From a virus (taxonomy: Duplodnaviria > Heunggongvirae > Uroviricota > Caudoviricetes): DNA of 64,000 nucleotides. Position 1 is the first letter of the stretch; every line of letters begins with the position of its first letter. This document shows, piece after piece, positions 5,058 to 55,128 of the stretch. A program made the translations under genes and the position numbers. Below the pieces are notes generated by a model, which worked only from the letters and a program-made list of their open reading frames with translations, did no database searches and was not told the DNA's origin. Where the stretch lies: positions 26,755 through 90,754 of the IMG/VR virus record IMGVR_UViG_3300035182_000695; one strand, given 5' to 3'.

Positions 5058-6086
5058 ATGCAACAAGAAAGAAAACTAGCATCGATTCAAAAAATCACAG
5101 CACTCAGAGAAATTCCAAACGCCGATAACATTGAGTGCGCAACAATACTTGGCTGGCAAGTAGTAGTACAAAAAGGAGAATTTAAAGTAGGTGATTTTGC
5201 TATCTATTGCGAGATTGATTCTTTAATTCCGGACATTGAAATATTTTCATTCTTGAAAAAGATGACGAATGATACAATGAGAATTCGCACCGTTCGTATG
5301 CGTGGACAAGTTTCACAAGGTATTTGCTTTCCATTAAGCTTTCTTAAAAACTTCACATTAACTACTGATGTTTATGAGGGTGTAGATGTAACGTCTATAC
5401 TTGGAATTATAAAATACGAAGATGAAATTCCTGCCGAGTTATTAGGTAGCGCAAAAGGATATATGCCCGCAGATATTCCTAAGTCAAGCATACTAAGAGT
5501 TCAAACAATGCAAGAGGTTCTTAATAAATATCAAGGTACTCTTTGTTATGAATCTGAAAAGCTTGACGGAGAATCAATAACTATGTATTTGAAAAATTCA
5601 GAGTTTGGCGTTTGTTCAAAAGTTGTTGACTTCTTTGAATCTGAAAAATCAATTCATTGGCAGATTGCTAGAGCTATAAACGCAGAAGAGAAACTAAAAA
5701 AATTATGCGATAGTAAATTTCGCAACTTCTCTATGCAAGGCGAAATGATTGGAGAAGGCATCAAAGGAAATAAATACAAAATAAAAGGCAGAAAAGTAAT
5801 GTTCTACAACATATTCAATATTGATGAGCATCGCTATCTTAATTTTGAAGAGTTTGAAAACACATTAAAAGCTTTAGGATTAGAAAGTGTTCCTATCATA
5901 AACAGAAACTTGCCTTTACCGACAGATATTGAAGAGCTTGTAAAGCTTTCTAACGGACGCTCGTTGATTTATGACACTAAGCGAGAGGGAGTTGTTATAA
6001 CGCCGCTAGAAGAGATAAATGATATGGTTGGTCGTGTTATTTTCAAAGTAATCAGTCCTGAATTTTTATTAAAGCACGGAGAATAA
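5058..6086 (+). CDS. ATP-dependent polynucleotide ligase, RNA-ligase-like (Rnl5/DRB0094- or NgrRnl-like architecture)
   Basis: 342 aa; nucleotidyltransferase motif I KLDGES (lysine-adenylate), downstream EGIKG (motif IV-like) and K-rich motif V region. An ~165-aa N-terminal domain precedes KxDG (ATILGWQVVVQKGEFKVGDFAIYCEIDS), as in N-terminal-domain RNA ligases. Confidence 0.5.
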   Translation: MQQERKLASIQKITALREIPNADNIECATILGWQVVVQKGEFKVGDFAIYCEIDSLIPDIEIFSFLKKMTNDTMRIRTVRMRGQVSQGICFPLSFLKNFTLTTDVYEGVDVTSILGIIKYEDEIPAELLGSAKGYMPADIPKSSILRVQTMQEVLNKYQGTLCYESEKLDGESITMYLKNSEFGVCSKVVDFFESEKSIHWQIARAINAEEKLKKLCDSKFRNFSMQGEMIGEGIKGNKYKIKGRKVMFYNIFNIDEHRYLNFEEFENTLKALGLESVPIINRNLPLPTDIEELVKLSNGRSLIYDTKREGVVITPLEEINDMVGRVIFKVISPEFLLKHGE

Positions 6087-16826: not shown

Positions 16827-18434
16827 ATGGAATTTTTAGAAATCTATTGGACCGACGTGTACAAAACAGGTCACAAACCAATGCTTCCAGTTGGAAGTAC
16901 ATTGATGGCTTCAAACAACACGCCTAGAAGCGACAAGAACACAAACTGCCCGAACAACGGAGAGCTAGTTGTTTTTGGAGGTCAAATGTTAGTTCGCAAA
17001 ATGAAAAGAGATTGGGACGTTAACTTCTTTCAACGACCTATTGAAGAGATTGATAAGTTTGGAGAAGACTTAACTAAAATGTTAATGCTATCTGAGCCTT
17101 ATGACACTACTCACTTTAAAGAGTTGCATCAATTAGGCTACTTGCCAGTAAGAATTAAATCAATGCCTGAGGGTAGTGTAGTGCCTTACAAAATACCTTC
17201 GTTCACTATTGTAAACACTCAGCCTTTAAATGGCGTTATTGTTGATTGGTTAGTGAATTATTTAGAAACAATTTTATCTGCTGAATCTTGGCAAGCGCCA
17301 ACATCTGCAACATTCTCTCGCTCTCTTAGAAAATTAGGAAAAGAGTGGATTATGAAAACTGATGAGAAAAATCTTTGGTTTTTAGATTATCAGTTTCACG
17401 ATTTCTCTATGCGTGGAATGGGCGGTAAATCCGCAATTGTGAATTCGGGTTTAGGGTTCGCAACTAGCTCAAGAGGTTCTGACACGCTTCCTGTTATTCC
17501 TGCCGCTCGAATGTACTATGATGAAGTTGAGCCTTGTATTAATTCAGTTATTGCGTCAGAACACGCTATTATGTGTTCCTTGACAGGCTTCTTTATGCAG
17601 AACTCGGACGGAAATTGGGATAAAGTTGCTGATTTTGAATATGAGATGTTTGTTTACTTGTTGAAGAAATTCCCTAACGGTATTTTATCTTTAGTAATGG
17701 ACACTTGGGATTTATGGAGAGCTATTACTCAGTATTGTGTTAGAGCAAAAGATATTATTATGGCTCGAAACGGTAAATTAGTAATTAGACCTGACTCAGG
17801 AAATCCTGCCGATATTATTTGCGGAATAAACAGTAAAGATAGTTTGAGTAGTGATGTTAAGTGCTTCGCTGATTTACATCACAAAGCGTATGGAGAAGGT
17901 GTTCATAAATTCGGCGGAGATATTATCAACGAGAATCAATTTAAAGGCGTTATAGAGCTTTTGTATGAAATATTTGGAGGAACTATAAATGAACAAGGGT
18001 ATAAAGTTTTAGATTCTCATATCGGCGCTATTTATGGAGACAGTATCAATTATAAAGCTGCTGTTGAAATATTCACTAGACTTGCTAAAAAAGGATTCGC
18101 TTCAACAAATATTGTTCTTGGCATCGGCTCTTACAGTTTGCAATTCGTAACGAGAGACACACACTCGATGGCTCAGAAAGCAACTTACATTGAAGTTTGC
18201 GGAAAAGGAATAGAAATCTTTAAAGACCCTATTACTGATGGCGGAATGAAAAAATCAGCTAAAGGATTATTAATGGTTTACAAAGATGATGCAGATGGAA
18301 AAATTAAGTTGAAGGACCAATGTACTTGGGAACAAGAGCGTCAAGGATTGCTTCAAGTTATATTTGAAGACGGTAAATTTTACAACGAAACAACTCTTAC
18401 TCAAATCAGAGAGAGATTAAATTCAACACTATAA
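16827..18434 (+). CDS. Nampt-family nicotinamide phosphoribosyltransferase homolog (NadV-like; candidate Namat of a NARP1 pathway)
   Basis: 535 aa; multiple blocks alignable to NAMPT: IKSMPEGSVVPYKIPSFTIVNTQP, FHDFSMRGMGG, VIRPDSGNPADII, GIGSYSLQFVTRDT, IEIFKDPITDGGMKKSAKGLL. Confidence 0.7.
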   Translation: MEFLEIYWTDVYKTGHKPMLPVGSTLMASNNTPRSDKNTNCPNNGELVVFGGQMLVRKMKRDWDVNFFQRPIEEIDKFGEDLTKMLMLSEPYDTTHFKELHQLGYLPVRIKSMPEGSVVPYKIPSFTIVNTQPLNGVIVDWLVNYLETILSAESWQAPTSATFSRSLRKLGKEWIMKTDEKNLWFLDYQFHDFSMRGMGGKSAIVNSGLGFATSSRGSDTLPVIPAARMYYDEVEPCINSVIASEHAIMCSLTGFFMQNSDGNWDKVADFEYEMFVYLLKKFPNGILSLVMDTWDLWRAITQYCVRAKDIIMARNGKLVIRPDSGNPADIICGINSKDSLSSDVKCFADLHHKAYGEGVHKFGGDIINENQFKGVIELLYEIFGGTINEQGYKVLDSHIGAIYGDSINYKAAVEIFTRLAKKGFASTNIVLGIGSYSLQFVTRDTHSMAQKATYIEVCGKGIEIFKDPITDGGMKKSAKGLLMVYKDDADGKIKLKDQCTWEQERQGLLQVIFEDGKFYNETTLTQIRERLNSTL

Positions 18435-34559: not shown

Positions 34560-35990
34560 ATTTTCAAAAAAAATATTTAAAAAAACGTCTTCAAGCAAGC
34601 AGGAACTCTCGTCATTTTTGGCTTTTGTTATCGCAAACCTGCTTGCGAGAAGGCTATTTATTCAATGTTAGTAAGCTCAAAGCATAGACTCGAACTCAAC
34701 AATAAGCAGAGAACACTAGCGTTTAAACACGCTGGAATAGCTAGACACGCTTGGAATTGGGGAGTTAAAATGTGTCAAGAAGCTTCTGAAAAAAGAGAGA
34801 AATTGCCGTCAGCAATGACGCTTCATAAAAAATTAGTTGCGGAAGTTAAAGTTGAAAACCCTTGGTATTATGAAGTTTCAAAGTGCGCTCCGCAAGAGTC
34901 TTTGAGAAATTTAGACGAGGCATGGCGTAATTATTTTCACAACTTAAAAAATGGAGCAATTCAGAAAAAGAAAAAATCATATATTTCAGAACGAAAACGA
35001 AAAGGATTGCCGATTAATACCAAAAAACTTTTCGACTTAGGTAAGCCAAATTTTAAGAAAAAAGGGATGCGTGATTCTTTTTGTTTAAACTCTCATGCAA
35101 TAAAAATATCAGGAAATAAAATCAAAGTTCCTATATTCGGTTGGCTTAAAATTAGTGAAAAATATAATGATAGTTTTATTATAAAAGGTGTGGTCATGTC
35201 AAGAACGGCTAACGATTGGTTTGTAAGTTTTCATAGAGAAGTTGATAATTTAAAAATTGAAGGAATTGAATCAAAGCCTAGTATCGGCGTTGATTTAGGA
35301 ATAAAAACTTTAGCGATTTTAAGTGATGGTGTTGAATTTAAAAATGTAAATGCTTTCGGGATAAATAAAAGAAAATTAAAATTAGCGCAAAGAAAACAAT
35401 CTAAAAATTTCAATAAAGACAGTAAAACACAGAGTAATAACTATAAAAAAGCAATTAAAAAAGTAGCGAAAATTTATCAAAGAATAGCAAATATTCGCAA
35501 AGATGCAACTCATAAATTAACAACATATCTTGCTAAGAACCACAGCCTGATAGGGATTGAAGATTTAAACGTGAGTGGAATGATGAAAAACAGAAAGCTA
35601 TCAAGCGCAATCGCTGATGGCGGATTTTACGAATTTCGCAGACAATTAGAGTATAAAACTCTTTGGTACGGCTCGAAATTAGTAGTAATCGACAGATTTT
35701 TTCCATCATCAAAAACTTGTTGTTGCTGCGGAAACATCAAAGAAAAATTAAAATTGTCAGAGCGAATATACGACTGCGAAGCTTGCCAATTGAGCTTAGA
35801 CAGAGATTTAAACGCTGCGATAAACATACAAAATTATGCGGTGAGTTACACCGTGAATGTCTGTGGAGAGTTACAAAAACAGTCGATTTCGACTGAAACT
35901 CAATGAAGCAGAAAGTAAACAGCAAAAATAAAACTTGCAAAAGTTTAGTATTGTATAAGTTTTGCGTAACGGCGATTTAAAAGAAAAGAA
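34560..35990 (+). mobile_element. IS200/IS605-family TnpB-only insertion element (IS1341-like)
   Basis: Intact tnpB flanked by a left hairpin GCAAGCAGG...CCTGCTTGC (34597-34652) and right-end hairpins plus the ACGGCGATT motif (35958-35966) shared with the truncated copy at 169-177. Boundaries approximate. Confidence 0.5.
34665..35906 (+). CDS. tnpB: TnpB (IS605 OrfB; RuvC-like nuclease with C-terminal zinc finger)
   Basis: 413 aa; N-terminal MLVSSKHRLELNNKQRTLAFKHAGIARHAWNWG (TnpB N-terminal consensus), GIEDLNVSGM (RuvC-II region), CCCCGNIKEKLKLSERIYDCEACQLSLDRDLNAAINI (zinc finger plus RuvC-III). Confidence 0.75.
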   Translation: MLVSSKHRLELNNKQRTLAFKHAGIARHAWNWGVKMCQEASEKREKLPSAMTLHKKLVAEVKVENPWYYEVSKCAPQESLRNLDEAWRNYFHNLKNGAIQKKKKSYISERKRKGLPINTKKLFDLGKPNFKKKGMRDSFCLNSHAIKISGNKIKVPIFGWLKISEKYNDSFIIKGVVMSRTANDWFVSFHREVDNLKIEGIESKPSIGVDLGIKTLAILSDGVEFKNVNAFGINKRKLKLAQRKQSKNFNKDSKTQSNNYKKAIKKVAKIYQRIANIRKDATHKLTTYLAKNHSLIGIEDLNVSGMMKNRKLSSAIADGGFYEFRRQLEYKTLWYGSKLVVIDRFFPSSKTCCCCGNIKEKLKLSERIYDCEACQLSLDRDLNAAINIQNYAVSYTVNVCGELQKQSISTETQ

Positions 35991-40007: not shown

Positions 40008-40479
40008 AAAGATTCAACTTTCGCAAGGCTTTGAAGCGATTGTGGACGAAGAGGACTTCAATCGTATTAGTGATTTCAAATGGCATATAAACAGAACGAA
40101 AAGCGGATTAATTTACGCTAGGCGAACTATTGTATATCCAAGAGTTAACGGCGTTCAGTCTAAAACAAAACAATACTTACACAGATTTATTTTAGATAAT
40201 TTTGATAAAGATGTGAAAATTATTTTCAGAGATAAAAACCCTCTTAATTGCAGTAAATCTAATTTAATAATCGGGAACGAATCTTGTAAATCTTATAACA
40301 TAACTAAAAGAAAAAAAGGAAAAGTTAAAGGCGTAAGAAAAAAACACAATAAATTTCACGCTAGAATTTTTGACAAAGACAAGTGTATTTTTATAGGCTC
40401 ATTCGACACCGAGTCTCAAGCCAAAGAAGCTTATGATAAATTAAATTCTGAAATGATTAAAAAAAATACTATTTCTTAA
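40000..40479 (+). CDS. HNH_3-like / AP2-domain homing-endonuclease-like protein (HNH core possibly degenerate)
   Basis: 159 aa; YLHRFIL and IIFRDKNPLNCSKSNL resemble the HNH_3 core (vHRlv...vdHiDgnklNN..NL) but with H->R. C-terminal KFHARIFDKDKCIFIGSFDTESQAKEAYDKLN is an AP2 DNA-binding domain signature. Confidence 0.45.
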   Translation: MTKKIQLSQGFEAIVDEEDFNRISDFKWHINRTKSGLIYARRTIVYPRVNGVQSKTKQYLHRFILDNFDKDVKIIFRDKNPLNCSKSNLIIGNESCKSYNITKRKKGKVKGVRKKHNKFHARIFDKDKCIFIGSFDTESQAKEAYDKLNSEMIKKNTIS

Positions 40480-42662: not shown

Positions 42663-43937
42663 TTAAACTATTTTAACATCATTTCCGCTTCTCCATAATG
42701 AATTGGCAGGTAGTCCAGCTGGCGTTCCTGGCAAGTCCATAACGATAGCGTTATTACTCAAATCAACTCTCAATAATGGCGTGTTTCCGAAAAATAAAAA
42801 ATCAACACCTGTTGCACTTACTTTTATTCCAGTACTATTAATTCCAATTAATACAGATTGATTAAATGATGCTCCCGACGCTGTATTATAAGTTCCTAAA
42901 ACAATCAAATCGCTTGTTGAAGATATATTATTTCCATTTCCGTAAATTCCACAATTACCCAATTGGTCTATTACGTTATTAACCCCCGCTAAAAGTAATC
43001 CGCTTGAGTTAGTTATTGTATTTCCTACGCCTAAAAGATTTACAAAAGATGAGTCTGATGAAAAATTACTTTCTCCTGTAATGTAACTTGATTGAACATT
43101 TGAAAATGTATTATAGTTTCCTAAGAAAGAAGTACTTGTAACATTCAATAATTCATTTGAATAACCGAAGTTAAAAAGACTACTTGAATTAGTAAAATGA
43201 TTGAATCTACCGAAATTAAATATAGACGAAGAATTATCTACTTGAGAATAATCACCAAAATTCCAAAAATCAGTTGCGTTCGTGAAATTATTCGCACCTC
43301 CAAAATTTATAACTATTAATGAATCCTCGAAAACATTTCCGCCATCTCCTAAGTAAGAAAATATATATTGATTAGAGCCGACTAATGTTCCAGTACCTCC
43401 AATATTATTCATAAAGAAATTTCCTAACGCATCTCTTGTTTTAAGAAACAATCCTGATACATCATTAATAGCGAATGTATTTGAGCCTAACGCATCTATT
43501 ACAGTAGGTTGTAATAATAAACCACCTAACTGAATTATACCGCCTGGCGCAACTAGCAAGCCGTTATTAGCTCCTGCTATTGCGCTAGCTCCGCCAATTC
43601 CTAATCCTGATGCTGCCCATTCATTTTGATTCGCTACATTGCATTTTATATTTGCCCCGTCTGTATTTACAACAATACTAGCTTGATTGTTTACAATATT
43701 TCCTAACGAAGCTGAGAGCGTTAAATTATTTAAGCTAAATCCTGCACCAACATCATTTATATAAACGCATCTCGAAGCATATAGCAATCCATTACTTTGA
43801 ATGTTTTGCAAAAATAAAGTAACTTCGCCTAAAGTAGTATCTACATTTATAACATCGTATGTATCCATAATTGCACCTGAGAAAGGTCCAGTTATTTGAA
43901 TTACATTTTTTGGCGATATATCATTCCCGTTTTTCAT
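42663..43937 (-). CDS. tail fibre / receptor-binding protein with shared N-terminal module
   Basis: 424 aa; the N-terminal ~120 aa are nearly identical to 53013..53564. Remainder G/N/S/T-rich with NN(I/V)xxxS repeats, beta-helix-like. Confidence 0.55.
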   Translation of the reverse strand: MKNGNDISPKNVIQITGPFSGAIMDTYDVINVDTTLGEVTLFLQNIQSNGLLYASRCVYINDVGAGFSLNNLTLSASLGNIVNNQASIVVNTDGANIKCNVANQNEWAASGLGIGGASAIAGANNGLLVAPGGIIQLGGLLLQPTVIDALGSNTFAINDVSGLFLKTRDALGNFFMNNIGGTGTLVGSNQYIFSYLGDGGNVFEDSLIVINFGGANNFTNATDFWNFGDYSQVDNSSSIFNFGRFNHFTNSSSLFNFGYSNELLNVTSTSFLGNYNTFSNVQSSYITGESNFSSDSSFVNLLGVGNTITNSSGLLLAGVNNVIDQLGNCGIYGNGNNISSTSDLIVLGTYNTASGASFNQSVLIGINSTGIKVSATGVDFLFFGNTPLLRVDLSNNAIVMDLPGTPAGLPANSLWRSGNDVKIV

Positions 43938-44546: not shown

Positions 44547-45092
44547 TTAAAATTCTTTTAAAATTGTGTAAGTGAAAAACGCTAGTTTAGTCGCTTTTCC
44601 GTCATCGTGAACAACCTTAAAGTCAGCAGGATTGTTTAATACAGTACAGCCCGCACTCCACTTGTCTATTATTTGAGAAATAGCTTTTTCATTTGCTCTA
44701 TGAATATTAATTCCAAACATTCCTGTTTCTGTAATAGCGCCTTCTTCTGCAATATCGTTTAAGTTCTTATCTCTGTAAACCGTGATTGGCTTTGCTTGAA
44801 CAAACGCTTCATATTTACCTTGATGTAAACCTAATTTCCAAGAATCGATATATTGATTAGGAACTACAAGAGCAGCGCCTTTAGGATTTAATAAATTTTT
44901 CAACCAATGAGTTCCTGGATTCGTCGTACAAGAAAACCATTTTATTTTATCTCCACTAATAACGCCAAATAAATCATCAAATTTATCTTTCTCGTTTGCT
45001 TTTGAACGAACTGCTACAAAATGAAAATCAAACCATTTATAGTTTAATCTTTTATATTCAGCTTTTAATTCTTCGATTGTATATTTTTTCAT
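44547..45092 (-). CDS. putative cell-wall-active enzyme, H...SxGC motif (YkuD/L,D-transpeptidase-like), paralog 2
   Basis: 181 aa; GMFGINIHRANEKAISQIIDKWSAGCTVL, His-x18-Cys. Paralog of 45097..45807. Confidence 0.3.
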   Translation of the reverse strand: MKKYTIEELKAEYKRLNYKWFDFHFVAVRSKANEKDKFDDLFGVISGDKIKWFSCTTNPGTHWLKNLLNPKGAALVVPNQYIDSWKLGLHQGKYEAFVQAKPITVYRDKNLNDIAEEGAITETGMFGINIHRANEKAISQIIDKWSAGCTVLNNPADFKVVHDDGKATKLAFFTYTILKEF

Positions 45093-45096
45093 AATC

Positions 45097-45807
45097 TTAA
45101 AAATTTGGTATGATTGGCTTTCCTTTATAAAATCTGTAACCTACATAAATACTAGCTACTGCAATTATCGCTATTAGTGCGTAACTTGTTTTTCTTTTAA
45201 AAGCTCTTAAATAAGCTCTCTCATCAACTAATGTATATGTGAATGAATTTCCGTATAACGCTTCCTGCTTATCGCATAGAGCTAAGAATTTAGCGAAGTC
45301 TTCTGCATTTTCAAACACATTGCAACCAGCCGAGTATTTGTCAATTACCTTTGTTGTACCAACTGCATTCGCTCTATGAATATTAATTCCAAACATTCCA
45401 GTTTCTTCTTTTCCGTTATTGAAGTCAAGAACAGCATTTCTATCATAGTCTCTGTAAACAGTAATTGGCTTCGCTTGAGTTAAAGCTTTATACTTTCCTT
45501 GGTGCATTCCTATTTTCCAAGCTCCAACATACTGACCTTCTTTTAAGATTGCAGTACCTTGAGGACTCATTGGATTATTGAGCCAAAAAGTGCCTGGGTC
45601 AGTAGTTATATTAAACACTTTTCCTTCACACTTACCAGTATCATTTTTCCAAAAGACATACATCTTGTCGTCAAACTTATTTGGAACAGTTCCATTGTGT
45701 CTAACGCCAACAATGTTCAATTGATACGGCTTCGAGTAAAGAATATATTTCTTTGACTCAAGAAGCCGTATTAATGAACGTATGCTTTTATTATCTTGTA
45801 CTTGCAT
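45097..45807 (-). CDS. putative cell-wall-active enzyme, H...SxGC motif, paralog 1 with a C-terminal TM
   Basis: 236 aa; GMFGINIHRANAVGTTKVIDKYSAGCNVF; C-terminal hydrophobic helix. Confidence 0.3.
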   Translation of the reverse strand: MQVQDNKSIRSLIRLLESKKYILYSKPYQLNIVGVRHNGTVPNKFDDKMYVFWKNDTGKCEGKVFNITTDPGTFWLNNPMSPQGTAILKEGQYVGAWKIGMHQGKYKALTQAKPITVYRDYDRNAVLDFNNGKEETGMFGINIHRANAVGTTKVIDKYSAGCNVFENAEDFAKFLALCDKQEALYGNSFTYTLVDERAYLRAFKRKTSYALIAIIAVASIYVGYRFYKGKPIIPNF

Positions 45808-45810
45808 TTT

Positions 45811-46410
45811 TTATTTGCTTAATGCTTCAACTTTAGCTTTAGATTCAGCTAATTTTTTAGTCCAGATAGGAATTCTTGTTCTGTCTTGTTTAACTTCTAA
45901 TGAGCGTTTTTTAATTAACTCGTGCGCTTGTTTAATTTTAGAAGTTAAGATGTTAACTCGACGTGTCCAATGAGCTAATTGTTTAGCTTTTTCTTTTGCA
46001 GCTTTTTGTTCTTTTGACTCTTTCACAACAGCAGCAACGGCAGCAGGTTTTCCAACAGCGGCAGCTTTCGCAACAGCAGGAGTTTCAGTCGCATCAGCAT
46101 AAGACATAATTTCATCTTTACCTGTTACATCAGCTTCTAATAAATCTTCATCGGCAGGTCCGTAAGAATAATCTCCATCGAAATCATACATCGGGTCCAT
46201 TCCTAAAACGTCATCGCCAGACTCTTCTTCATCGCCTTCTGCGTTTGCGTATTCTTCTGCATCTAAATCATCGTCGCCATCAGCACTAGATTTTAATTCA
46301 GCAGGTCCAACTTTACTTTTATTTTTGAAATCAGTTGTTAATAAAGCATAAACTCCTACACCTAGTATAAGAGCAATCGCTACTTGTTTTGCATTTACTT
46401 TTGTTGTCAT
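45811..46410 (-). CDS. membrane-anchored acidic/Lys-rich protein
   Basis: 199 aa; N-terminal TM, D/E-rich middle, K/A-rich C-terminus. Confidence 0.45.
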   Translation of the reverse strand: MTTKVNAKQVAIALILGVGVYALLTTDFKNKSKVGPAELKSSADGDDDLDAEEYANAEGDEEESGDDVLGMDPMYDFDGDYSYGPADEDLLEADVTGKDEIMSYADATETPAVAKAAAVGKPAAVAAVVKESKEQKAAKEKAKQLAHWTRRVNILTSKIKQAHELIKKRSLEVKQDRTRIPIWTKKLAESKAKVEALSK

Positions 46411-46425
46411 TTTTTTAGTTATTTG

Positions 46426-46764
46426 TTATTTGTTTGTATTCATTTTAATTGTGTTCAGTAAGTCCAATATTTTATCTTGCTTATCTTCGATTCTTGAAAC
46501 TCTGTCTTGTAAGTTAACTCTTTCAACTTCACTCATACCTTTGAATATAGCAATGTTTGCCATATCATTTTTAATTGAAACTACATCCGCTTTTATTTCT
46601 TTAATGTCAGAAGAGTGAATGTCTAGTGTTGATGACGTTTTATAATAAAATCCGTACCCAACTCCTAACGCAACTATTAATGCTGCTGTTAAACTCACTA
46701 CATTTGAAATTAGAGAGCTTTTTTTGATGTGGTTTTCTAGTGTTTGTGATGCTGTTGCGTCCAT
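46426..46764 (-). CDS. single-pass membrane protein
   Basis: 112 aa. Confidence 0.45.
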   Translation of the reverse strand: MDATASQTLENHIKKSSLISNVVSLTAALIVALGVGYGFYYKTSSTLDIHSSDIKEIKADVVSIKNDMANIAIFKGMSEVERVNLQDRVSRIEDKQDKILDLLNTIKMNTNK

Positions 46765-46809
46765 AGTGCTGTGTTTTTTTATTCTTTACTTTTTTTACTT
46801 TTAATGAGT

Positions 46810-46911
46810 GTTGGAAAGGGCTAGCCCTTGAGAGAATCAACCCCGAAGGGCTAGTTCTTGAAAGGGTCAACCCCGAAAGGCTAGCCCTTGAAAGGGTCAA
46901 CCCTTTCCAAC
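46810..46911. repeat. GC-rich 3 x 30-bp tandem repeat, each unit carrying the palindrome AAGGGCTAGCCCTT, bracketed by inverted repeat GTTGGAAAGGG / CCCTTTCCAAC
   Basis: Units at 46816-45, 46846-75 and 46876-905. The only strongly GC-rich stretch in the window; intergenic between two minus-strand genes. Confidence 0.7.
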
Positions 46912-46927
46912 TAAATATTTCAATGTA

Positions 46928-47956
46928 CTAATTTTTTATTCTAACTCCTGAATCTTGTATTGCAATGTTTATTCCTTTAAATCCAACAACCGTCGGAGAT
47001 TGTCTTTCTACTCTCATTGATATTCTAAATATTTCAGAAAGTTCTCCGAATATTATCGGAGGTTGTCCTACTGCCGTATTTGGATTTTTTATTCCAATTG
47101 CTAATTTAAAATTCACAACTCTTTTTCCAAAATTACCGTGCTTTCCTTGAAATTTAAAAAAAGATATACTCTCATTTAATCTTGACGCATCAGGAACAAC
47201 CCATATTGGGCTAGGTCCACTTTGGTCTGAATATCTCATAAACTGCAAAGGATTAAAAGCTAGTAATGTTTTGTTGTATGCTCCTGCGCCGAACGTGTAT
47301 TCTGTATCTAACGGTATCGCTGTTGAGCCTGAATAAAAAGCGCCATTAGGAAAATTAATTCCGTCTTGATGCGTAGGATGATAGTATGAGCCTTTTTTAA
47401 ATTTTTTAGTTGGCACGCCTAGAATCTTCTTTCTGTAAGGTCTAGCAGTTCTTGCCATAAATAAATAATACTTAGGTTGATGTGATAAAAATGATTCCGA
47501 CTCTCCTGTGAAAGGCAAATAGAAAGAATATAAATCGTTATACAGATTAGAAGAATTGAATACTCCTATTTGAATTAAAGGCTTTGGTATAAATATTGAA
47601 CTAGATGAAGGTGTAGATGAGCCTTGAGCTAAAATACCGTATTCTGTTTGACTTGAAATAAATATTTCTATTTTACTTCCATTCTGATTCATTACATAAC
47701 TCGTCGTATTTTCAATTGTATTCGCAACAGTTGAAACAACAGTTATATTATTTGCAGAGGCATTATCGTCAGCATCATCTACAAATATTTTTGTAGATAC
47801 TGCGCAGCCAAAATTTATAATCTCAGGTAAATAAATAGTTATCGGACCAGTCGATGTTTTACATATAAAACGAATCTCGTTGTTTTGCAAGTTAAATTGA
47901 GCTGGACTAACTCTTAGTATATAATTTGTACCGCCTGGTATTGTAATGTAACTCAT
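46928..47956 (-). CDS. structural protein with the shared N-terminal module (tail-associated)
   Basis: 342 aa; N-terminus ...ILRVSPAQFNLQNNEIRFICKTSTGPITIYLPEI...NNITVVS follows the same pattern as 42663, 53013, 57608 and 59842. Confidence 0.5.
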   Translation of the reverse strand: MSYITIPGGTNYILRVSPAQFNLQNNEIRFICKTSTGPITIYLPEIINFGCAVSTKIFVDDADDNASANNITVVSTVANTIENTTSYVMNQNGSKIEIFISSQTEYGILAQGSSTPSSSSIFIPKPLIQIGVFNSSNLYNDLYSFYLPFTGESESFLSHQPKYYLFMARTARPYRKKILGVPTKKFKKGSYYHPTHQDGINFPNGAFYSGSTAIPLDTEYTFGAGAYNKTLLAFNPLQFMRYSDQSGPSPIWVVPDASRLNESISFFKFQGKHGNFGKRVVNFKLAIGIKNPNTAVGQPPIIFGELSEIFRISMRVERQSPTVVGFKGINIAIQDSGVRIKN

Positions 47957-47977
47957 TTTTCGTTTTTGCTCGTATCT

Positions 47978-48646
47978 TTAAACCATTGTGTCTAGCACTC
48001 CTTTTGAGCCTAGTAATTTTAATATGTATGATGCTGTTTCTTTTGGCAATTGCGGCATCATTTCTTCTATTGTTCCTGTGAATGAAATTATTTTTTTCGC
48101 AACAGCTCCGTATCTTCCCCCGTTGTAAATAGTAACAACTTTATCCATTCTTATTCTTCCGTCAGGCTGAGTAAATTCATCAATCAACTGCTTTAAAAGA
48201 ATTGAGCCAATAAGTAAATTAAGCTCAGGTTTAAATAAATCTTCTTTTGTGATAAATGTTTTACCTAAAGAAGTTTGTCCTTTCTTAACTGATTCAATTA
48301 AAGAATATCGAGAGCCTAAATATTTTTTAAGTATTGCAGCTTCTGGCTCAGATAATCTTCCTGCGCCTTTTTCTTTAACTAAGGCGTCTGATGCTGCGGC
48401 AGGAGAAACTTGCATTAATCCTATTGCATAAGGAGACTTAGCGTTAGGGTCTCCAGCACTTTCAATAAAAGTAAACGCTTCTAGTAACTCACTAGGAACA
48501 TTTGTTATTTCAGCTATATTATTTATGAATTTTCCAAACTTAGGCCTTATCACGCTAACTATTTTAGCTTGATTAGCTTTAGCTGAAACATCGTCGTAAT
48601 ACGCTTTGTTTATTGCTGGTATTTTTATATTTAATTCTGCTGACAT
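47978..48646 (-). CDS. lytic transglycosylase (SLT domain)
   Basis: 222 aa; IESAGDPNAKSPYAIGLMQV = catalytic ES...GLMQ signature of family-1 lytic transglycosylases. Confidence 0.55.
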   Translation of the reverse strand: MSAELNIKIPAINKAYYDDVSAKANQAKIVSVIRPKFGKFINNIAEITNVPSELLEAFTFIESAGDPNAKSPYAIGLMQVSPAAASDALVKEKGAGRLSEPEAAILKKYLGSRYSLIESVKKGQTSLGKTFITKEDLFKPELNLLIGSILLKQLIDEFTQPDGRIRMDKVVTIYNGGRYGAVAKKIISFTGTIEEMMPQLPKETASYILKLLGSKGVLDTMV

Positions 48647-49642: not shown

Positions 49643-49730
49643 TTTTAATTTTAAAGCGATGACGTTAAACTATTCAACGATAAATGTAAGCATTTTAACC
49701 ATACAATTTAACGCCATTGCCATTTTTTTG

Positions 49731-50009
49731 TTATTTAATTCCTTCTAAGTACTTAATTATTGGCGATTTCGCCATTACAACAATGTTCTCAGAGTCTTTT
49801 ATTAAATTTTTAAATTTAACGAAATCTGAATCATCCATTTCAACAATTTTATTTTTACTAAACGTAATCGCCCAATCAAAATATTTAACCGAGTCAGTTT
49901 TTGACATCGAACTCATTAAAAAATTAGCGACTAAATTCCCTGCCGTGTCTAGTTTTTTACCTTGTAAGTTAACTAACTCAAATCTTAAATCTACTTTTTT
50001 CATACTCAT
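49731..50009 (-). CDS. hypothetical protein
   Basis: 92-aa ORF. Confidence 0.45.
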   Translation of the reverse strand: MSMKKVDLRFELVNLQGKKLDTAGNLVANFLMSSMSKTDSVKYFDWAITFSKNKIVEMDDSDFVKFKNLIKDSENIVVMAKSPIIKYLEGIK

Positions 50010-50036
50010 TTATTTTTATTTATTTGTTTATAATTA

Positions 50037-50774
50037 TTATCCTTGCACTTCAACAGTTACATTAAAATTCGCTCCGTTCTTAGTTACATCAACTGTATTT
50101 AAAGTGAAGTTATCTACTGCTAAAACAATTATAGCATTTGTAGAATCTCTCTTAACACTAACAATCGGATTTAATGTATTTAAGTTGTGCGTTATTGTTA
50201 CAGGCGTTCCGCCGCCAACAGTAGTTGAAGGGGAAGTGTATTTATGCGGCAAGAAATCTGCGTTTTTTAACTTCAACGGAGTTATTGCTTTCGTGTCGTT
50301 AGTGCCAGTATTCGTCTCTGCTTGAGTAGCAATAGCTATAACGCCAGCGACAGTTTCACTAGCAGGAATAGTATTCCCTTGAACAACAGTCCAGTCAGCT
50401 AATGTTACAGGAGTATCAATATTTGCGAACAAACTATCACCAACTTCCAATGTAGTTCCGAAGAAAGGACCTGCAACAGTAACAACATAATACCAACCTT
50501 TTAATATGCCAGCACCACTTGTTAAGTTCGGCACATTTGTAGTTGCGTTATAACCTCCTTTGAAATTTAAGTTGCCAGTAATATCATTCATGTTCGCAAC
50601 GACTTGTATGTTCAATCCGTCGTCATACAACAATCTACCTGATGTTGTATCGAACATAAATCTTCCTTTGGACGGCGCACCACCTGTTACAAAGCCAGTT
50701 CCGTTTTGCGCTCTTGCATTTATTAATTCGTTTAGCGTTAAGTCTAAATCTACTGCTATTAATTGATTTGCCAT
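50037..50774 (-). CDS. tail fibre-like protein
   Basis: 245 aa; N-terminus ...GRFMFDTTSGRLLYDDG parallels 51822..53009 (...GRLMYDTVSKRVFIDTG). T/N/G-rich. Confidence 0.5.
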   Translation of the reverse strand: MANQLIAVDLDLTLNELINARAQNGTGFVTGGAPSKGRFMFDTTSGRLLYDDGLNIQVVANMNDITGNLNFKGGYNATTNVPNLTSGAGILKGWYYVVTVAGPFFGTTLEVGDSLFANIDTPVTLADWTVVQGNTIPASETVAGVIAIATQAETNTGTNDTKAITPLKLKNADFLPHKYTSPSTTVGGGTPVTITHNLNTLNPIVSVKRDSTNAIIVLAVDNFTLNTVDVTKNGANFNVTVEVQG

Positions 50775-54402: not shown

Positions 54403-55128
54403 TTAACTTTCGTTTTTTAGTTTTTCTAATTTTTTAGCATTAAACTTAGACATATTGTACTTACCTCTCTTAACTCCTAACCTTTGCGAAGTCATCAACG
54501 CTTTCGTTTCTTCGGAAAATTTCTTTCCAAGTTTTGCTTTTCTCATTAATAATATAGAAGCTTCTGAGTTTTTTCTACCTCTAATTTTAATCAATCTCTT
54601 TTCAATCCTTTCTTTCGATTGTTTTTTTCCTTTATTTGCAAGTATAATTAGCTGCTTTGTTTCCTGTGTGTGAATTCTACCTTTGCTTGATATTCCTATA
54701 TTTTTTCTATGCTCCTCTGAAAACGCAATTCCTTTACGGCCATTACTTATGTTTTTTCTATGCTTTTCTGATTTAGGAATTCCTTTTGAACGAGATGAAA
54801 GTTTATCTTTAGTTGTTTGACTTACAAAATTTGAGCCCTGTCCTCCAATCGCAGAATTAGTTAGTTTAAATCCCCATTGTTTAAATTGAGCAATCCAATA
54901 TATTTCCCAAAATTCCCAATCTTCTACCGAAACCTCATCGATTATTTCCATAACGGGAAGTAGTCCATTTACTCTTAGTGATTTTATCCACCTATCTTTA
55001 TGGCTATCTTTATTGTCTTTTCGTAAATGACCTCCTAATCTTTTTTTTAGACTGTTAGCTTTTCCAATATATCTAACTTCACCATTTCTAGGGTCGCTTA
55101 AAGAATATATGTATGAAATATCTAACAT
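54403..55128 (-). CDS. GIY-YIG homing endonuclease with NUMOD3-like repeats
   Basis: 241 aa; YIYSLSDPRNGEVRYIGKANSLKKRLGGH (GIY...YIG...R); C-terminal repeats S(E/K)(E/K)HRKNI. Confidence 0.65.
   Translation of the reverse strand: MLDISYIYSLSDPRNGEVRYIGKANSLKKRLGGHLRKDNKDSHKDRWIKSLRVNGLLPVMEIIDEVSVEDWEFWEIYWIAQFKQWGFKLTNSAIGGQGSNFVSQTTKDKLSSRSKGIPKSEKHRKNISNGRKGIAFSEEHRKNIGISSKGRIHTQETKQLIILANKGKKQSKERIEKRLIKIRGRKNSEASILLMRKAKLGKKFSEETKALMTSQRLGVKRGKYNMSKFNAKKLEKLKNES

Follow-up and report, generated by a model that had tools for sequence, protein, structure and literature searches.

A 30-bp Tandem Repeat Beside a Tail-Fiber-Like Gene of Uncultivated Phages and the Candidate Branched RNA It Specifies

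Between two minus-strand genes in a 64-kb stretch of phage DNA (the window, i.e., the whole stretch that was analyzed; 32.4% GC) lies a short GC-rich array of 30-bp repeats (46810-46911; GTTGGAAAGGGCTAGCCCTTGAGAGAATCAACCCCGAAGGGCTAGTTCTTGAAAGGGTCAACCCCGAAAGGCTAGCCCTTGAAAGGGTCAACCCTTTCCAAC). A sequence-only reading had taken its dyad symmetry and 30-bp spacing as typical of arrayed sites for dimeric DNA-binding proteins, and had added that, once transcribed, the array should give a highly stable terminator or attenuator made of several hairpins. The question raised by this locus is whether selection acts on the array as DNA or as RNA, or not at all, and what such an element could do between two genes.

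Repeat Array and Its Fold on the Minus Strand

TRF analysis of the array gave a 30-bp period, 2.9 copies, and 86% matches, with the highest score in the window (134). A repeat finder placed the unit starts at 46816, 46846, and 46876, with units 2 and 3 being 83 and 80% identical to unit 1, respectively. The three head-to-tail units described in the sequence-only reading were thus borne out by both programs, and its dismissal of a CRISPR array was correct, since the units follow one another without unique spacers. The inverted repeat around the array (GTTGGAAAGGG at 46810 and CCCTTTCCAAC at 46901) is present and even longer than described: its arms reach 20 nt (46810-46829 with 46892-46911) at 85% complementarity. 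The intergenic placement between two minus-strand ORFs was also confirmed (Table 1). Other details held in part. The palindrome said to be perfect in each unit is perfect in unit 1 (AAGGGCTAGCCCTT), whereas it has two mismatches in unit 2 (AAGGGCTAGTTCTT) and one in unit 3 (AAAGGCTAGCCCTT); the GGGTCAACCCC hairpin assigned to each unit is exact in unit 2 and inexact in the others. The site is the richest 100-bp segment of the window at 53% GC, although "by far the most GC-rich spot" is too strong a description, with other segments at 50-52%. The search for more palindrome copies that had been proposed found none elsewhere in the 64-kb window, nor did the other array motifs occur again there. 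A covariance model of the element (R1, described below), run over the window with filters off, returned one significant site, i.e., a single copy.

The minimum free energy (MFE) fold of the minus strand, which is the sense strand here, is a three-way junction of -52.2 kcal/mol; the fold z-score is -4.1 on either strand. Among all 110-nt segments of both strands the site ranked first, at -51.3 kcal/mol; the average was -14.6 (SD 5.0), and the runner-up reached -38.7 kcal/mol. On the minus strand the 104-nt layout is X'1-UC-X1-UUCG-X'2-UC-X2-UUCG-X'3-UC-X3, in which X is approximately AAGGGCUAGCCC and X' approximately GGGUUGACCCUU, and the array flanks are GUUGGAAA and UUUCCAAC. A closing helix of 19-20 bp, consisting of X'1:X3 and an 8-bp extension, encloses two inner hairpins (X1:X'2 and X2:X'3) of 11-12 bp, each capped by a UUCG tetraloop. 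In this register a half-palindrome pairs with the neighboring GGGTCAACCC segment across the UUCG loop, which differs from the pairing drawn in the sequence-only reading.

The window alone already favors the UUCG register and the minus strand on three grounds. The UUCG loops exist on the minus strand only (the plus strand reads CGAA). The differences between units, GG to AA in unit 2 and CC to TT in unit 1, offset one another in the UUCG register and in no other; in hairpin B, GG to AA in X2 is met by CC to UU in X'3, giving AGAA/UUCU. Several stem pairs are G.U and would be A.C on the opposite strand. Both inner hairpins, on the minus strand, have the form that PMC8948821 gives for T4-type intergenic hairpins, (X)2-8 C-UUCG-G (Y)2-8 with complementary X and Y and G.U permitted, hairpin B as UAGCCC-UUCG-GGGUUG and hairpin A as UAGCCU-UUCG-GGGUUG. 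Rfam 15 gave zero matches at gathering threshold across the window (best score in the region in E-value mode, 15 bits vs. a gathering score of 100), and the search for tRNAs and tmRNAs gave none.

Table 1. Coordinates of the repeat array, the predicted RNA element, and the adjoining genes in the window
Feature	Position	Strand	Evidence or remark
Tandem repeat, 3 x 30 bp	46816..46905	none	TRF score 134; repeat family D1; gives rise to the repeated helix modules
Whole 104-nt structured RNA element (predicted): closing stem and two UUCG-capped hairpins	46809..46912	-	R1 109.7 bits, E 6e-25
Closing (outer) stem, 5' arm GUUGGAAAGGGUUGACCCUU	46892..46911	-	Pairs with 46810-46829
Closing stem, 3' arm AAGGGCUAGCCCUUUCCAAC	46810..46829	-	Includes the "perfect palindrome" of the sequence-only reading; fold and alignment
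Hairpin A, AAGGGCUAGCCU-UUCG-GGGUUGACCCUU	46862..46889	-	Loop 46874-46877; MFE fold, UUCG hairpin scan
Hairpin B, AGAACUAGCCC-UUCG-GGGUUGAUUCU	46833..46858	-	C(UUCG)G loop 46844-46847; fold, UUCG hairpin scan
Upstream gene, 342-aa tail-fiber, tailspike or baseplate-attachment-like protein	46928..47956	-	Stop codon 15 nt before the element
Spacer/leader, 44 nt, A-rich	46765..46808	-	No Shine-Dalgarno, no U-tract; sequence
Downstream gene, 112 aa, one predicted membrane helix, coiled-coil-like tail	46426..46764	-	ORF list, translation

Homologous Elements and Covariation

Eleven further distinct versions of the element were found on metagenomic phage contigs. Together with that of the window they make 12 elements, all of 104-108 nt and all adjoining homologs of the same tail-fiber-like gene. 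Three other contigs with the identical protein carry the identical element. Elements occur in the same place in L004, L010, L012-14, L022, L023, L027, L030, L034, L006/7, L026, L028, and L008/9, in which the fiber-like protein is 30-78% identical to that of the window. The covariance model R1, built from the close set of elements, matched at full length in every relative and added two members, L030 (a 97-kb IMG/VR contig, 88.8 bits) and L034 (a contig binned in a Bacteroidota MAG, 70.7 bits).

The relatives differ in instructive ways. L004 (protein identity 78%) has the same array with substitutions that include G to A together with C to U, and the replacement of a C.A mismatch by a U-G pair, consistent with the UUCG register. 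L010 (46%) has three identical 30-nt units of its own sequence (GGGUAUCUCUUUUCAAGGGGAUGCCUUUCG), and L012/13 and L014 (43%) have three-unit arrays with other helix sequences. The inner hairpins of L027 (41%) bear no resemblance to its own closing stem. The loops of L006/7, L026, and L028 are UUAU(U), and L008/9 carry an element of yet another sequence. L005 (46%) has one hairpin, equal to the window element minus its two inner units, as expected from a deletion between direct repeats; at least one phage can therefore do without the branched form. In L024/L025 the element (1377-1480, 63 bits) is upstream of the fiber-like gene and hence not strictly a 3' appendage to it; it directly follows an ORF for a 52-aa membrane protein, and the stop codon of this ORF falls within the closing stem. 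A spurious 32-aa ORF was called across the repeats in L024/L025.

A different element of 121 nt occupies the same place (∼634-760) in a 29% identical relative, L016, and was not matched by the covariance model. Its closing stem is 19 bp long, 15 bp of which form a perfect inverted repeat; GGCGGC-UUCG-GUCGCC is among its inner hairpins, and the MFE is -61 kcal/mol (z -7.0). The short-read contigs L004 (ending 63 nt past the stop codon), L011, L022, and L023 stop within or just before the array, as the 30-nt repeats evidently break k-mer assembly beside the fiber-like gene.

Several other searches gave no homologs. Against 50,697 phage records, neither megablast (45800-48000) nor tblastn (the 342-aa protein) found a match, and a single-protein scan of IMG/VR was negative as well. 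The pattern TTCGGGGT-N17-20-GCCYTTCGGGGT had five hits in IMG/VR, all by chance (coding sequence, viruses of 55-67% GC). A stricter 37-nt pattern had no hit in the genome contigs of 185,579 species and one chance coding hit in IMG/VR. Literature searches found no description of such an arrangement.

To score covariation, the 12 elements were placed in an ungapped alignment of 104 columns (A5), in which pairwise identity goes down to 38-50%. A5 was trimmed of loop insertions according to the covariance-model alignment and leans slightly toward the modeled structure for that reason; a MAFFT alignment (A4) was set aside because divergent members were off by one column. On the 12 elements, 90.0% of the cells of the three-way junction were paired and 28 of the 40 pairs were compensatory. 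The covariation score was 0.709 compared to 0.230 for shuffled alignments (none of 500 reached 0.709), and sliding the alignment by one column in either direction reduced pairing to 55%. An independent RNAalifold run arrived at the same junction, with compensatory changes in 29 of 37 pairs. Each helix contributed: the closing stem was paired in 93% of cells (13/19 pairs compensatory), hairpin A in 84% (8/11), and hairpin B in 91% (7/10). GGG/CCC is invariant in the closing stem, which keeps a U.G wobble in 10 of 12 members, and in 9-10 of 12 G.U wobbles persist at corresponding sites in the three helices. When the analysis was confined to seven close sequences, 95.4% of the junction cells were paired and half of the pairs (20/40) were compensatory, a result as high in 0/500 shuffles. 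The self-palindrome structure on the same seven sequences paired 75.9% of cells, a value reached in 44/500 shuffles and nearly matched by a +1 slide (74.3%), with two compensatory pairs.

The evidence is also strand-specific. Non-Watson-Crick pairs in the close set comprise 41 G.U and 2 A.C; in a 10-element set including more divergent members the counts are 67 and 20. The sense strand has the lower MFE in all 12 elements, and in close relatives the strands are typically 20-40 kcal/mol apart. In the window element the two strands fold almost equally well (sense -51.3, antisense -48.2, ∼3 kcal/mol apart), so the strand argument rests on the relatives. An excess of G.U over A.C and a better sense fold are unexpected for a protein-binding DNA palindrome, which points to RNA as the selected object.

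These results bear on the view that the locus works as DNA, either through dyad-symmetric sites for dimeric proteins (an operator, a partition centre, pac, or origin iterons) or as a cruciform site. The 30-bp spacing, the one perfect 14-bp palindrome of unit 1, and the near-equal folding of both window strands would suit it. However, the palindromes are not conserved beyond shuffle level, and the sequence drifts freely while complementarity between neighboring half-units is held through G.U on the sense strand only. Neither conservation of a recognition sequence or dyad nor strand-neutral symmetry was found. In addition, the orientation of the element always follows transcription, its motif has no second copy in the window, and the neighboring ORFs gave no DNA-binding domain hits. 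We regard a DNA-level element as extremely improbable, and the arrayed binding sites of the sequence-only reading were not supported. We concluded that the selected object, as judged from the compared sequences, is an RNA and not a DNA-binding array.

A second question is whether the repeat does anything. It could be a hairpin or tandem repeat that expands neutrally, or else a small insertion resembling a MITE and bounded by terminal inverted repeats: the copy number varies from one unit (L005) to three identical units (L010), the outer arms look like such terminal repeats, and 11-bp direct repeats occur at 46775 and 46932. The direct repeats are 20-24 nt away from the inverted repeats and do not abut them, however, and there is one copy per locus. 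The pattern searches of the 185,579 species and of IMG/VR likewise speak against a mobile repeat. That compensatory changes run across phages whose proteins share only 30-46% identity implies selection over a long period. An element devoid of function is thus a very remote prospect, and a MITE was rejected (no abutting target-site duplication, a single copy in 64 kb, and a pattern absent from genome contigs). Architecture, length, and adjacency to the fiber gene have been held by compensatory substitutions in at least 12 divergent phages.

One copy of the 11-nt direct repeat (AGAAUAAAAAA on the minus strand; 46775-46785 and 46932-46942) falls within the final codons of the 342-aa ORF and the other within the 112-aa ORF's leader; with respect to these ORFs, the two copies share their codon register. 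The repeat is absent from the relatives and is probably a chance A-rich match. A translational bypass of the T4 gene 60 type was rejected on the same absence and on the gap of 157 nt. A coding repeat was rejected as well: although an ORF (46640-46900) crosses the array, every frame is interrupted in at least one of the 12 members. A DGR target was dismissed since no second copy of 46700-47960 (template repeat) exists within the window.

We regard the closing helix as secure. The interior, being built of repeats, could largely pair in other ways as well: three sequential hairpins inside an 8-bp stem pair 84.6% of cells, and a nested rod, which is the single-sequence MFE structure in L024, L030, and L034, pairs 86.9%. 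The inner helices are 84 and 91% paired in the two-hairpin form compared to ∼81% in the alternatives, and the two-hairpin interior is more stable than three sequential hairpins in 12 of 12 elements. We therefore prefer the two-hairpin interior, which pairs better, is more stable, and explains the conserved tetraloops; on this modeling it is the best-supported arrangement, though not a proven one.

Such a compact fold might be released as a stable non-coding RNA, with double-strand cleavage of the closing stem freeing a junction of ∼90 nt that acts in trans or binds a protein. The length of strictly 104-108 nt in 12 members at 40-50% sequence identity would fit this possibility, as would the conserved 19-20-bp closing helix, the GCCC/GGGU module with its conserved G.U wobble in all three helices, and the single-copy locus. 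On the other hand, beyond the 2-nt linkers there are no conserved single-stranded nucleotides that could serve as a recognition surface, UUCG loops have no known protein or RNA contacts (PMC4371310), and L005 has just one hairpin. Release in this form appears quite improbable to us. Very improbable, too, is a more specific version in which a free-standing, pseudo-threefold RNA cut at the 20-bp stem would be bound by a phage protein, such as the neighboring fiber-like homotrimer or its assembly factor, so as to autoregulate or aid fiber production.

Gene Neighborhood and Read-Through

PHROG and Pfam searches assigned no family to either flanking ORF (342 and 112 aa). A stabilizer at the 3' end of a major capsid gene was rejected, as the upstream protein is fiber- or baseplate-like and not a capsid protein. 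The 112-aa protein has a homolog (51% identity) at another position in L008, and its gene is followed in the window by endolysin-related paralogs (PHROG hits). Two of the ORFs there, of 236 aa (45097-45807, minus) and 181 aa (44547-45092, minus), are adjacent paralogs with 42% identity, each matching phrog_3000 and, less strongly, an endolysin family.

The downstream gene varies among the relatives while the element stays beside the fiber-like gene. In L005, L010, L012, L027, and L008 the next gene encodes a fiber-like paralog of 449-574 aa, whose window counterpart is a 424-aa ORF (42663-43937, minus) 3 kb from the element; L006 and L026 have an unrelated 146-aa protein instead. Six window ORFs (112, 199, 236, 181, 76, and 131 aa) separate the element from the 424-aa ORF, and by eye the N-termini of the 449-574-aa homologs resemble the N-terminal region of the 342-aa family. 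The gap from the element to the next start is 44 nt in the window and 16-28 nt in the relatives. The element lies 0-21 nt past a stop codon in 11 of 12 lineages and is always oriented in the direction of transcription.

The window spans the boundary of two oppositely oriented gene blocks, and transcription converges at ∼40469-40479: the plus-strand ORFs extend to 40479, and the minus-strand ORFs occupy the part from 40469 on. Other genes in the window include an SLT transglycosylase domain protein (47978-48646), a nicotinamide phosphoribosyltransferase accessory gene (16827-18434, E 1.7e-160), an RNA ligase accessory gene (5058-6086), an IS-type transposase family protein (phrog_506, 34665-35906), and, within the late module, a homing-endonuclease-like ORF (54403-55128; phrog_314, with a weaker GIY-YIG-type match). 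A second structured spacer, between minus-strand ORFs at 49643-49730 (minus), contains a long imperfect hairpin (88 nt, -22.7 kcal/mol) in an area that is overlapped by a plus-strand ORF (49717-50325). A Shine-Dalgarno core precedes only 4 of the 99 window ORFs, and the leaders are A-rich, with 80% A at -3 and 60-67% A at -14 to -10, a pattern resembling that of Bacteroidota. The homologous locus of L034 is on a 375-kb contig (JAVTWD010000016.1) binned as a Bacteroidota MAG. Taken together, the few Shine-Dalgarno cores, the A-rich leaders, and the Bacteroidota-binned homolog suggest a Bacteroidota host for this phage.

The position just past a stop codon would suit a partial intrinsic terminator or attenuator, possibly one with a long stem resistant to antitermination, which lowers expression downstream of the fiber gene. 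A GC-rich helix is present (-52 kcal/mol) with an A-rich 5' flank and a U-rich 3' flank; in most members the invariant GGG/CCC core is followed by UUUC or UUUU, and good U-runs are found in L008, L024, and L028. Very long stems resist processive antitermination, and in TerR of pLS20 a long stem hardens the terminator in this way (PMC10325885). The window element shares with such terminators the GC-cored long stem after the stop codon and the A-rich 5' and U-rich 3' flanks, but it is branched. Moreover, a 7-9-nt U-rich tract directly 3' is missing: downstream of the CCC core the window reads UUUCCAAC (three U), and downstream of the full stem ACUCAUUA. A run of at least five U in 8 nt past the full stem was read in only 2 of 12 members, and a U-rich tract of any kind after the stem in 2-3, and a consensus terminator scan made no call at the site. 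The U-rich 3' arm is always paired with the 5' arm (99% paired, 7/8 pairs compensatory) and is GC-rich in L024, which indicates that the flanks are selected for pairing and not for U content. Termination here is probably not efficient, since the next gene seems to have no space for a promoter of its own. We consider a terminator or attenuator as the main role to be unlikely. The terminator remark of the sequence-only reading was on the right track in foreseeing stable RNA hairpins, although the predicted hairpins are in a different register and a canonical U-tract is missing.

Proposed Role and Comparison With Known Systems

With moderate confidence, and arguing from conservation and gene order, we lean toward a cis-acting intercistronic element for mRNA stability or processing in a late polycistronic message, possibly one that also attenuates. 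The array would be the DNA template of a structured RNA within a late message of the minus strand. RNA polymerase probably reads through the element, given that the next start is 16-44 nt away, apparently too near for a promoter in between, that the downstream cistron differs between relatives, and that no conserved U-tract follows. The folded RNA would then act post-transcriptionally, as a barrier to 3'-to-5' exonucleases, as an RNase III-type double-stranded site, or as both; the closing helix has the length expected of such a site (∼20 bp or more of near-continuous double-stranded RNA). As a result, the stability and dosage of the fiber-gene message would be uncoupled from those of the downstream genes, in the window the membrane-protein and endolysin-like genes. 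Partial attenuation of read-through may contribute. The tandem repeat itself would be a by-product: a helix module may have been multiplied by slippage, homogenized or re-expanded in some lineages (the three identical units of L010), and reduced to one hairpin in the L005 lineage by deletion between direct repeats.

Phage intergenic regions, above all those of T4, often contain hairpins of the form (X)nCUUCGG(Y)n, and some of these stabilize transcripts, as summarized in PMC8948821 (citing Tuerk et al., 1988, PNAS 85:1364). The T4-type hairpins share with our element the intercistronic location, the sense-strand orientation, the G.U-tolerant stems, and the C-G (or U-G) pair closing UUCG. In contrast to them, two such hairpins are fixed here in a branched 104-nt module with a 19-20-bp closing helix, and this module is built of 30-nt repeats, single-copy, and tied to one gene neighborhood.

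Intercistronic stabilizers and RNase III sites include the T7 early and late sites, the malE-malF REP hairpins, and the puf operon hairpins. By analogy with these, stable double-stranded RNA between cistrons that are read through could set differing stabilities of the message segments. The element has no sequence similarity to them, is not dispersed like REP, and lacks the characteristic internal-loop geometry of the T7 sites. The phi29 pRNA is likewise a phage-encoded RNA around a very stable three-way junction; it is an independent transcript with interlocking loops and binds the portal. Our element differs from it in having inert UUCG loops, in being embedded in an mRNA, and in giving no Rfam or sequence match. 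As a structured-RNA motif the element is new and well supported; its general type, a hairpin module between cistrons of phage mRNA, is familiar, and its branched architecture built from repeats is unusual.

An odd repeat has thus become a candidate RNA family of 12 distinct members of ∼104 nt, with strong covariation and no Rfam match, in poorly known large uncultivated phages that probably infect Bacteroidota. It offers a clear case in which tandem duplication of a hairpin module builds and rebuilds a branched RNA, and such arrays break short-read assemblies exactly beside host-range genes. Should the element indeed govern how stable the fiber message is relative to those downstream, it would be an insulator or stabilizer that is compact, portable, and extremely stable, suited to hosts in which translation is not driven by Shine-Dalgarno sequences.
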